Virus record (IMG/VR): IMGVR_UViG_2713896784_000007
DNA: 14,289 nt
Source: a virus
Lineage: Duplodnaviria; Heunggongvirae; Uroviricota; Caudoviricetes
Direction: 5' to 3' (one strand)
Positions 3,001 through 6,000 of this stretch are shown here, one piece after another. Position numbers: made by a program. Positions within the stretch are counted from its first letter, which is position 1. Every line of letters begins with the position of its first letter.

Positions 3001-6000
3001 TTTTTTTACAACGCTTTGTATTTAATAGTATTGTTTTTTAGCGTGGGTGTATTGCCTCGGCGATGTAAGGAGAGATCAGAATTGCGTTGTTTAGTGAGTT
3101 GTATCTATTTATTTTCCAATAAATACAATTGGTTATGTGTTTTTTTGGGCGAGAGGAAAAGAAAACCCGGCATGGAGGCCGGGTTGATGATTAGCGGTGT
3201 GGCCTTGAGCGATAATGCTCACACACATGTTCAAGATTTCCATGCCTTATCCGTTCATAGGCATTCACATGAACTTCTCGATCGAATTGGTCATTCAAAT
3301 TGTATGTAGACATCTGTGTTTTCTCATATTGGCGGCAGCCCTACAACCGCTTGAAAAAATGTACCAGACGCGCTAAGGTTACATCGCAAATATTGTGTAC
3401 CTTAACAAGGGCTCCTTTTGGAGGCTCTGGTTAAACAGCATCAATGTCGGACTGGGGAGTTGGACATTGTGCTGAATGCTTTTGCATTATTGAGGCCGAA
3501 CGTAAACCTTCAGAATTGAAGAGATGCGTTCGGCTTCTTCGTTTGTGATATCGTTAGGAATGCCTTTAATCGTTACTGTAACCCCTGATTCAGGTCGAAG
3601 AACTACTGGAAGATCATAGGTATGAAGTGCATTAGCCTTGCCTTCGACTTTTGTTGGTTCGCCAGTCAAATCTTTTTCCTCACTGGATTCTTTGTCAATC
3701 GGAGTGTATGGGATTTCTTCACCAGACTGGAAAGCTACAAACTTTTTGATTGCACTTTCCATGCGGCTTTTATATGCAGTAATGCTGCTGTCGCTAGGCT
3801 TCGGCTCAGTTGCGTTGATGTATCGCTCGGCAAGCTCATTCACATCAAGCTGAGTAACATCACCCATTTCCTCTTCTTGGACTACCGTTAAGAGGCGAGC
3901 GGATGAGTTTTTTAAATTTCGAGCGGTGGCCTCCTTCATTATGTTCAGCGACATAAGCTCTTCAAGGAAGTCCTTGAATGCCTGCACGCTAACGTTTGAC
4001 TTTGCCATTTGCTCTCTCTCTAAGTTATTGACTCAGATCGAGTTTATCCAGGAATTGATTTGCATGCAAGACTCAAGTCTTGAGAATTTCCGTTCAAGAT
4101 CCACTCTCAATAAAAAAGGCCGCACCTCTGCGACCTTTCATCTCCTAAATCTCTTTTCTCTTACCTAAAGAAACAGCAGGCTGGGTCAGCCCTAACAACT
4201 TCAAGTGCATCGGTCAGAGAAAGCTCCGTGCTATACAGGTGTTATTTCATATCTTTTTGCATCCAATAAATTTTCCATCTGTCCAGAGAGCGGATGCACT
4301 TGATTCTTGTTGATGGCAGGACGTTTTTTCACCTGCCTCACCCTGCCATACAGGACGCTGCTCACCGATATCTATCGTCCGGTCATTGATGTTATAGACA
4401 ATATCCAGATCATTACGGATATACTCAGATGGCCTTATGCTTTCAATGAATAGATGAACTTCTTTTTGACCGCTTGATACTCATGGCCATTAAACTCCAT
4501 CTATCCTCTTTACCCAAACGTCTCTTCAGGCCATTGGCTGGCGATAACTTTCCCCACAACGGAACAACTCTCATTGCATGGGATCATTGGATATTGCGGG
4601 TTTAGTGGTTGTAGAAACACCTGACCGCTATCCCTGATCAGTTTCTTGAAGGTAAATTCATCACCACCAAGTCTGGCTATGCAGAAATCGCCGGGCTCAA
4701 CAGCTTGCTCAGGGTCAACCAGAATTAACATCCCGTCAGGAAAACTAGGTTTGGAACCTGTTGGTGCGGTCATTGAGTTACCTTCAACCTCAAGCCAGAA
4801 TGCAGAGTCACTGGCTTTTTTGGTTGTGCTTACCAATCTCTCCGCATCACCTTTGGTAAAGGTTCTGAGTTCTGGAGAGAACATCCCAGCCTGAACATGA
4901 GAAAAAACAGGGTACTCATATTGTTTTTTAACTGGGGCCGATGAGTATTCGCCAACAGGTGAAAATGTCCCGTCGTGGTTGAATGATATGTTATCAATAC
5001 CAAGGTATTTAAACACCACACCAATATCACTAAGAGATGGATGACGAGATCCGCGCAACCAGTGTCCAATTCCACCCTGCGTCATACCTAGCTCTTCGGC
5101 TAACTTCTCTTGAGTTATGCCGAGCTCTTTCATTCTGGATCTAGCCAGTTCATACCATTTCATTTTCATGTCCTTATTATTACGCTCTGTACTGGAACCA
5201 TCCATGCACAATGTGTATTTTTACTTGTATTTGAGAAGTACATATTGTATTTTTTTTATTCGTGGTTACTATGGAGGGCATATGAGCAACCTACGAAAAT
5301 ATCGAGAGTCACTGAATATCTCTCAAACAACACTTGCTAAGGCAGTTGGATGCACACAGGGAGCTATCGGACATTGGGAATCTGGTCGTCGCTTCCCAGA
5401 CCTTAAAACATGCCGTGCTCTTGTTGCGTGTCTAAACAAGTTAGGCGCAAAAGTAAGTCTTGATGACGTGTTCCCGCCGGAGCACAAAGCCGCTTAATAA
5501 GCGGAGCCGCTCTTTGTAACAACGGACATTCGTCCTACGTCGCTGAAAAGCGAGTCCCAAGATATCTGACCAACTAAGGCCATATGCGTTTCCACGCATA
5601 CCTTTCAACTAACTATTCACTATTGGAAATCTTAAGAAATGGAACGAACAAGTTACAGCAAACTATCACAGCGCGACGTTGATCGCGCAGAAACAGATTT
5701 ACTCATCAACCTGTCAACGCTTACACAGCGCGGTCTGGCAAAGATGATTGGCTGTCATGAATCGAAGATAAGCAGAACGGACTGGCGGTTTATTGCTTCG
5801 GTCTTGTGTGCTTTCGGAATGGCATCAGACATCAGTCCGATTAGCAGGGCTTTTAAGTATGCGCTTGATGAAATCACAAAGAAAAAATCCCCGGCTGCCA
5901 CCGAGGATTTTAAGCAAATTGATATGCAATTCTGAGGGAATTACTGGATCAATCCACAGGAGTAATTATGACAAAACGTCGTAAGAAATACCAGGAAAAA

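Follow-up and report, generated by a model that had tools for sequence, protein, structure and literature searches.

A cI repressor of the VT2-Sakai immunity type that combines a lambda-type C-terminal domain with another DNA-binding domain

Introduction

How does a phage come to carry a repressor whose two halves have different relatives, and what immunity would such a repressor confer? These questions are raised by the cI gene found in a 14,289-nucleotide stretch of viral DNA (the window; Caudoviricetes, IMG/VR record IMGVR_UViG_2713896784_000007). An earlier reading of the sequence, referred to here as the original prediction, saw in this gene a chimera of a lambda-type C-terminal domain and another DNA-binding domain, built by recombination at the domain linker, in a phage hetero-immune to lambda, and considered its start codon ambiguous. 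We conclude that the gene is, with high probability, an intact cI encoding a prophage repressor of the VT2-Sakai immunity type, a two-module mosaic of lambdoid, mostly Shiga-toxin (Stx), phages.

A lambda-like C-terminus joined to a different N-terminus is already published for this repressor type. Smith et al. 2012 (PMC3430580) treated the cI of VT2-Sa, Stx2-II, YYZ-2008 and 1717 as one gene annotated with different amino termini, and reported a carboxy terminus common to lambda CI and the CI of VT2-Sa/Stx2-II/1717/YYZ-2008, the amino end being unique. According to the summary given in PMC10742460, Fattah et al. 2000 had found the homology of VT2-Sa and lambda CI to be high in the C-terminal and low in the N-terminal part, and in a 2022 BMC Genomics paper (PMC8951638) the Clade I CI is 61% identical overall to lambda CI. 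As a mosaic, the window gene is a domain swap of the textbook type and not new; what it does is to place the window as the early region of a Stx phage of VT2-Sakai immunity.

A lambda-type C-terminal module and a different DNA-binding domain

A single long minus-strand open reading frame (ORF) spans 4510-5211 in the ORF list and contains cI (Table 1). The N-terminus of the protein matches the Pfam family HTH_3 over residues 11-58 (E = 1.9e-10), which identifies it as a DNA-binding domain, and the C-terminus matches Peptidase_S24 over residues 87-209 (E = 1.1e-28). The Ser132/Lys175 dyad and the Ala-Gly site in the linker are conserved, as in repressors of the LexA/lambda-cI type. In a search of solved structures the protein matched the full-length lambda repressor (PDB 3bdn, E = 2.6e-96), and residues 84-219 align without a gap to residues 101-236 of lambda cI (PDB 8gmu residues 1-136). 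Over these last 136 residues, from YEYPVF to the end, there is one natural difference from lambda, W129L; phage 683R2, with the same N-domain, has kept the Trp at this position (Leu112 in the window). Every residue of the dimer and cooperativity surfaces is shared with lambda cI (PDB 3bdn, 1f39, 1lmb), as are the Ala-Gly site and the Ser/Lys dyad, and RecA-stimulated autocleavage would be expected from the 99.3% identity to the C-terminal part of lambda cI.

At the DNA level, 4514-4920 is 93.4% identical to lambda 37231-37637 (407 nt, 27 mismatches, 0 gaps, E = 1e-177). When the comparison is made in steps of 30 nt, beginning at the stop codon, 25-29 bases per step match lambda through 4929 and 4-11 beyond that point. 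The nucleotide alignment, which had been proposed as a check, locates an abrupt breakpoint at 4920/4921, between Gln83 (4921-4923) and Tyr84 (4918-4920), within the inter-domain linker and 10 residues before the Ala-Gly cleavage site; the other edge of the lambda similarity is the cI stop codon. Both the protein and the DNA comparison bear out a lambda-type C-terminal domain.

Searched separately, as had also been proposed, the two halves have different relatives. Those of the C-terminal half are lambda, HK106 and similar phages (99.3%), followed by Salmonella phages (80-82%), 933W-like Stx phages (~64%) and P22 C2 (46%). The N-terminal half has a family of its own with at least 96% identity; next come Salmonella phage repressors at 52% and the C2 proteins of phages L and ST64T at 55%. 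These closest relatives of the N-domain, the P22-like C2 proteins and the repressor of Salmonella phage 64795_sal4 (sal4), probably have a specificity different from that of the window repressor. The sal4 protein has the same full architecture, with 80% identity in the C-domain, the same Met-Lys-Met start and the same TAC-N5-GTA operator core.

The N-terminal helix-turn-helix (HTH) domain had been called unrelated to that of lambda. It is indeed a different domain, 18 residues shorter and devoid of lambda's N-terminal arm and first ~15 residues, but the word unrelated goes too far for an HTH_3 domain that is 30% identical to the lambda N-domain over 50 residues in helices 2-4 (pairwise E = 8e-8). 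The two HTH regions have Q-x-G-[VI]-G in common, and when the N-domain is compared by sequence with solved structures, lambda repressor (1lli, E = 4.5e-4) comes before the 434 repressor (0.25) and P22 C2 (0.38). By this comparison the two N-domains are distant homologues within one fold family.

Across 4921-5873 blastn found no DNA similarity to lambda, and cro and the operators are non-lambda as had been predicted. Cro is itself an HTH_3 protein, 35% identical to the N-domain of cI (recognition helix TQGAIGHW in Cro, TQGGIGHW in cI), while lambda Cro belongs to another fold family. A Cro paralogous to the N-domain of the repressor is an arrangement known from P22 and 434. The operator consensus also differs from that of lambda. 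The motif ARTAC-N5-GTAYT, scanned over the whole window, has matches with 0-1 mismatch only at 2950, 2975, 5179 and 5237, in the left and right operators (OL and OR), and weaker ones at 3008 and 5205; with up to 2 mismatches allowed, 23 matches are found as compared with 12.4 +/- 3.4 in shuffled sequences. The six sites coincide with putative operators annotated in AP005153. With a divergent cro, three predicted operators between the two genes and three at the leftward promoter pL, the region has the organization of a lambdoid switch, and its layout resembles that of lambda in the divergent cro, the tripartite OR and OL and the geometry of the maintenance promoter pRM. The centre-to-centre distances are 26 and 32 bp in OR and 25 and 33 bp in OL; those of lambda OR are 23 and 24 bp with the same cooperativity domain. 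Neither a lambda N-domain nor lambda-type operators or a lambda-type Cro were found in the window, unlike the situation in the imm-lambda phages HK97, SfI and HK244, whose N-domains are at least 98% identical to that of lambda. The cI genes of these three phages were also considered as chimeras of a lambda C-domain and a foreign N-domain; on sequence comparison they proved to be of the lambda type throughout and were rejected.

Table 1. Coordinates of the cI region and of other features in the window
Feature	Position	Strand	Basis or remark
cI repressor coding sequence	4510-5169	-	219 residues from ATG 5169; stop 4510-4512; ORF list
Lambda-type module (distal linker, cleavage-site region, S24 domain; residues 84-219)	4510-4920	-
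Non-lambda DNA-binding domain and proximal linker (residues 1-83)	4921-5169	-
Ala94-Gly95 codons (lambda Ala111-Gly112 autocleavage site)	4885-4890	-	VQAGMF context identical in alignment
Ser132 codon (lambda Ser149 nucleophile)	4774-4776	-	GNSMT motif, alignment to lambda cI
Lys175 codon (lambda Lys192 general base)	4645-4647	-	aligns with the residue mutated to Ala in PDB 8gmu
Leu112 codon TTG (lambda Trp129, TGG)	4834-4836	-	alignment
Second in-frame ATG (Met3), alternative start	5161-5163	-	Shine-Dalgarno-type spacing
Shine-Dalgarno-like AAGGA	5171-5175	-	1 nt from ATG 5169, 7 nt from ATG 5163
Putative pRM	-35 TGGATG 5199-5204; -10 AATAAT 5176-5181	-	17-nt spacer; 6 nt to ATG 5169
cII-box-like TTGC-N6-TTGT, putative pRE -35 region	5648-5661	-	1 mismatch; at cII start
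OR3 TATTACGCTCTGTACTG	5178-5194		putative operator in AP005153; motif with 1 mismatch
OR2 ATGCACAATGTGTATTT	5204-5220		centre 43 bp from 5169; AP005153 annotation, motif scan
OR1 AAGTACATATTGTATTT	5236-5252		overlaps pR -10 region; AP005153 annotation; motif, 0 mismatches
OL1	2949-2965		AP005153 annotation mapped to window; motif scan
OL2	2974-2990		AP005153 annotation mapped to window; motif scan
OL3	3007-3023		AP005153 annotation mapped to window; motif scan
pL	-35 TTGACC 2971-2976; -10 TACTAT 2948-2953	-	17-nt spacer; overlaps OL1 and OL2; promoter scan
cro (71 residues, HTH_3, paralogue of cI N-domain)	5282-5497	+	Pfam HTH_3, E = 4e-12
CII-family protein	5639-5935		Pfam
Lambda-like patch (87.5%) with Timm-like terminator hairpin (3164-3185)	3070-3185	-	blastn to lambda 35708-35826; terminator scan
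173-residue ORF (ORF22 of Nil2 and VT2-Sakai), slot of lambda rexA-rexB	3487-4008	-	between cI and Timm-like terminator
Rfam Lambda_thermo (cIII thermoregulator element)	1507-1565	-	88.5 bits; start of cIII-like gene
Rfam isrK, C4 antisense RNA, sRNA-Xcc1	10397-10582 and 11527-11610	+	74.7, 66.7 and 79.3 bits
53-residue ORF (ORF53 of Nil2), between cII and O-like gene	5968-6129	+

Identity with repressors of Shiga-toxin phages

Many Shiga-toxin phages, among them Stx2a_WGPS8, Nil2, 1717, 2851, YYZ-2008, Stx2-II, Stx1-Morioka and the PA series, have a cI-cro-cII region that is 99.4-99.9% identical to the 1.3 kb between 4400 and 5700. Over cI, OR and cro (4510-5300) the DNA identity to VT2-Sakai, 1717, Stx2-II, Nil2, 2851 and Stx1-Morioka is 99.2-100%. 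The window runs collinear with the Nil2 sequence from 2486 on (99.7%), and the identity to VT2-Sakai amounts to 99.8% on one side of the breakpoint and 99.2% on the other. The near-identity of cI, OR and cro over their full length assigns the window to the VT2-Sakai immunity type (cI2c/cro4), and homo-immunity with phages of this group is expected on the basis of sequence. The cI of the VT2-Sakai (Sp5) group, the cI2c type of Smith et al. 2012 or Clade I CI of PMC8951638, is the same gene with the same operator layout (AP005153).

The annotated starts of this gene vary between records, and the Sakai prophage copy differs from that of the window by a reported premature stop (Smith 2012, PMC3430580), AP000363 annotating just 510 nt. 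The window gene could, like this copy, be a decaying remnant without a working repressor. We give this hardly any credence, as the window ORF is uninterrupted over 219 codons and has retained all catalytic and cleavage residues, many inducible Stx phages encode the identical protein, and the ratio of nonsynonymous to synonymous substitution rates (dN/dS) is ~0.01.

The DNA covering cI plus OR was counted as present at a coverage of at least 80%; on that basis 776 of the 5,426 complete genomes of E. coli (14%) have it, including Nissle 1917, CFT073 and E2348/69. Such population figures extend known ideas and may be of use for studies of Stx-prophage induction.

Mosaic structure and repeated exchange

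Comparison with HK97, which is lambda-immune, delimits what has been exchanged. The identity to the window is 94.6% over 4510-4920 and 96.5% from 5507 on, with unrelated sequence over 4921-5506; the exchanged cassette is therefore exactly 4921-5506, comprising the N-domain, OR and cro, with homology on both flanks. OL (2949-3023) and N form a separate non-lambda block, and between OL and the ORF at the rex position lies a lambda-like patch that matches the Timm region annotated in HK244. On these alignments several junctions are needed rather than one. Of the proposed recombination at the domain linker, the sharp junction in the linker stands; one simple cross with lambda does not, given the separate OL/N block and the interleaved patches.

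The age of the exchange argues in the same direction. In the C-domain, the window and lambda differ by a dS of 0.39 and a dN of 0.003, and among seven phages 41 of the 46 variable sites of this domain are third codon positions. The sequences indicate an exchange with lambda that did not happen recently, and a C-domain protein under strong purifying selection. A single recent cross at the linker between lambda itself and one other phage would account for the sharp junction there and for the second one at the stop codon. We nevertheless regard it as very unlikely, since it leaves unexplained the 27 synonymous-type differences from lambda within 407 nt, the occurrence of the same chimeric gene in lineages that have diverged by ~5-8% (683R2/720R6), the separate non-lambda blocks of OL and N, and a C-domain that is internally mosaic among the seven phages.

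Further comparisons point to exchange that has occurred again and again. Phage 683R2 has the same N-domain type as the window (dS 0.14) and a C-domain dS of 0.46; its C-domain and that of 720R6, which also has the window's N-domain type, are closer to the C-domain of HK97 than to that of the window. The VT2-Sa-type cI of phage 2G7b and a lambda-immunity cI carried by an O157 chromosome (NZ_CP022050.2) agree at 30 of 30 variable sites in the 3' part of their C-domains. A third N-domain type, also present in Salmonella phage S137, is found in Lambdavirus PDP110P1 (OZ035751.1; stretch 1501-2150) together with its own linker and cleavage-site region; here the cI is identical to lambda only from AFWLEVEG onward, which puts the junction ~40 residues further in, past the cleavage site. 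The full-length homologue in sal4 (N-domain 52%, C-domain 80%) is saturated at synonymous sites in both halves, and the repressor architecture itself must therefore be old. Taken together, these sequences identify the C-domain as a gene pool common to repressors of different specificity and subject to repeated homologous exchange.

The mosaic could in principle have arisen without any recombination, if one ancestral repressor had diverged in place with a fast-evolving DNA-binding domain and a constant C-domain, and the sal4 pair taken by itself is compatible with such divergence at different rates. Selection on the protein cannot, however, hold synonymous sites, and it is precisely in these that the step occurs: the C-domain has a dS of 0.39 to lambda, yet the adjoining N-domain DNA is at the level of random sequence, the transition taking place within ~10 nt. 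Identical blocks of C-domain haplotype across N-domain types and the existence of different junctions speak against it as well, and we consider divergence in place to be extremely improbable.

Repeated exchange of modules thus remains our preferred reading, and it has parallels. Hybrid repressors of lambda, 434 and P22 made in the laboratory have taught that N- and C-domains act as independent modules; those chimeras were engineered, whereas the window cI is natural and widespread. BP-4795 and 933W CI have an identical C-terminal half and different N-terminal halves (Smith 2012, PMC3430580). These proteins and that of PDP110P1 are domain-swapped like the window cI but with other modules, the junction in PDP110P1 lying past the cleavage-site region.

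Start codon and promoters of cI

The ambiguity of the cI start raised in the original prediction, a leaderless start at 5169 against a start with conventional Shine-Dalgarno spacing at 5163, is real: public records contain three different starts, 5163 in Nil2 and 683R2, the equivalent of 5169 in 64795_sal4, and 5205 in AP005153 and RefSeq. In sal4 the frame of the RefSeq ATG at 5205 is closed, and in the window this ATG is situated upstream of the predicted pRM. Along the coding strand the window has AATAAT-AAGGAC-ATG(5169)-AAA-ATG(5163).

The lambda pRM transcript is leaderless. A -10-like hexamer is located exactly 6 nt ahead of the first ATG in lambda (TAGATT), the window (AATAAT), sal4 (TATAAT) and S137 (TATTAT), and AP005153 annotates a putative promoter at the same placement as the window pRM. 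The distance between the OR2 centre and 5169 has a lambda equivalent of 42 bp, 1 bp less than in the window. We favour the start at 5169 because of this lambda-like geometry of hexamer, 6 nt and ATG, which is also seen in sal4 and S137; ATG 5169 on a leaderless pRM transcript is most likely the start of the maintenance mRNA. The AAGGA sequence, of which AAGG is retained in 683R2 and sal4, lies too close to the first ATG and, judging from its spacing, would therefore serve 5163 only, on transcripts started further upstream. In this way ATG 5163 is possibly used on the establishment transcripts from pRE. This gives grounds for choosing between the three cI starts that databases contain.

The tandem Met-Lys-Met of the window cI is also present in sal4 despite 52% N-domain identity. 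More generally, tandem ATGs, the first 6 nt past a -10-like hexamer and the second 6-9 nt past an AAGG/GGA Shine-Dalgarno sequence, are conserved in sal4, S137 and 683R2, and this conservation covers lineages with either 52% N-domain identity or another N-domain type. By means of such tandem ATGs, leaderless pRM transcripts and leadered pRE transcripts of a single gene may both be translated.

Immunity specificity and co-resident repressors

The phage is likely to be hetero-immune to lambda, as had been proposed. A distinct immunity is suggested by the different operators, the different recognition residues, the missing N-terminal arm and the existence of genomes with both repressors. The window N-domain is present in 776 and the lambda N-domain in 618 of the 5,426 E. 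coli genomes, with a union of 1,211. By this count (776 + 618 - 1211) both cI types reside in 183 complete genomes (~3%), many of them O157, which is about twice as many as the 88 that independent occurrence would give; one O157 locus was inspected in addition. All 1,435 of the 1,435 copies of the lambda-type C-domain in the collection are attached to either the window or the lambda N-domain.

In the mechanism that we propose, the N-domain (residues 1 to ~70), inherited together with cro and the six operators A(A/G)TAC-N5-GTA(C/T)T, would set the immunity specificity. Dimers of cI would bind OR1/OR2 and OL1/OL2 through their VT2-Sa-type N-domain and thereby repress the rightward promoter pR as well as pL, and from OR2 they would probably stimulate pRM. 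By analogy with lambda, the identical C-domain should provide dimerisation, cooperativity between dimers or higher-order contacts, and RecA-stimulated self-cleavage at Ala94-Gly95 by Ser132/Lys175. Upon DNA damage and the SOS response, pR and pL would be released and the prophage induced, so that late transcription could reach stx.

A number of points weigh against this picture. Operator binding, autocleavage, cooperativity, the positions and use of the promoters and the start codon of cI are predictions from homology and geometry. Since the OR spacings differ from those of lambda, pairwise cooperativity in the manner of lambda, here across three helical turns, is an assumption. Neither pR nor pRM was called at the threshold of the promoter scan; the hexamers given are weaker matches, positioned with the help of analogy and of the AP005153 annotation, and those of pRM lie in AT-rich DNA. 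The cII-box count is no higher than expected by chance, and what is suggestive is only that the box lies where cII starts, as it does in lambda. Finally, cross-immunity of VT2-Sa with lambda was reported by Fattah et al. 2000, as far as this is stated in PMC10742460, and is hard to reconcile with a clean swap of specificity.

The last point raises the possibility that the repressor is functionally cross-immune with lambda, through partial cross-recognition of operators or through the shared C-domain, and that the phage is not truly hetero-immune. Lambda CI binds all six VT2-Sa operators with an apparent dissociation constant of 3.7-6.4 uM (PMC10742460), and Q-x-G-[VI]-G is common to both HTHs. 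The affinity is, however, 10- to 30-fold below that of lambda CI for its own OR1/OL1 (0.21-0.35 uM) and was seen at micromolar protein; the operator consensus differs, the lambda N-terminal arm is absent from the window cI, and the genomes with both cI types are more numerous than expected. Functional cross-immunity therefore appears unlikely to us, and hetero-immunity is retained as the likely state.

The inspected locus (O157 FDAARGOS_293, NZ_CP022050.2, 1361778-1367085) contains an intact lambda-immunity cI-cro-cII region, with cI at 1364278-1364991, in a degraded prophage; it is flanked by elements of the IS3 family of insertion sequences and adjoins a replication-gene pseudogene.

Co-resident lambda-type and VT2-Sa-type repressors have practically the same dimerisation and cleavage domain, so that mixed dimers would be possible in vivo. 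That a lambda-immunity cI and a VT2-Sa-type cI do form such dimers with two different DNA-binding heads is a doubtful proposition. If true, mixed dimers could weaken the repression of both prophages and link both to one SOS threshold, and could alter the stability of the Stx prophage and its toxin output; the interaction might also underlie the published cross-immunity between lambda and VT2-Sa.

Neighbouring genes

In place of lambda rexAB the window has one unrelated ORF of 173 residues. Pfam and PADLOC gave no match for its product, and its PHROG matches were all to families of unknown function, the best being phrog_2602. The rex slot holds different genes in HK244, 2G7b, ev207 and S137, and the ORF may be an accessory or exclusion gene expressed in the lysogen. 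Between it and cI, about 500 nt (4009-4509) are without a long ORF.

To the left of N, the gam-kil-cIII-ea10 block is lambda-like. The Rfam matches to isrK, C4 antisense RNA and sRNA-Xcc1 lie within the ant/roi portion of the nin region, which suggests a P1/P7-like c4-ant module of antirepressor control downstream of the replication genes. The small ORF that follows cII and precedes the O-like gene has a counterpart at the same position in HK97 (gp53), 683R2 and sal4.

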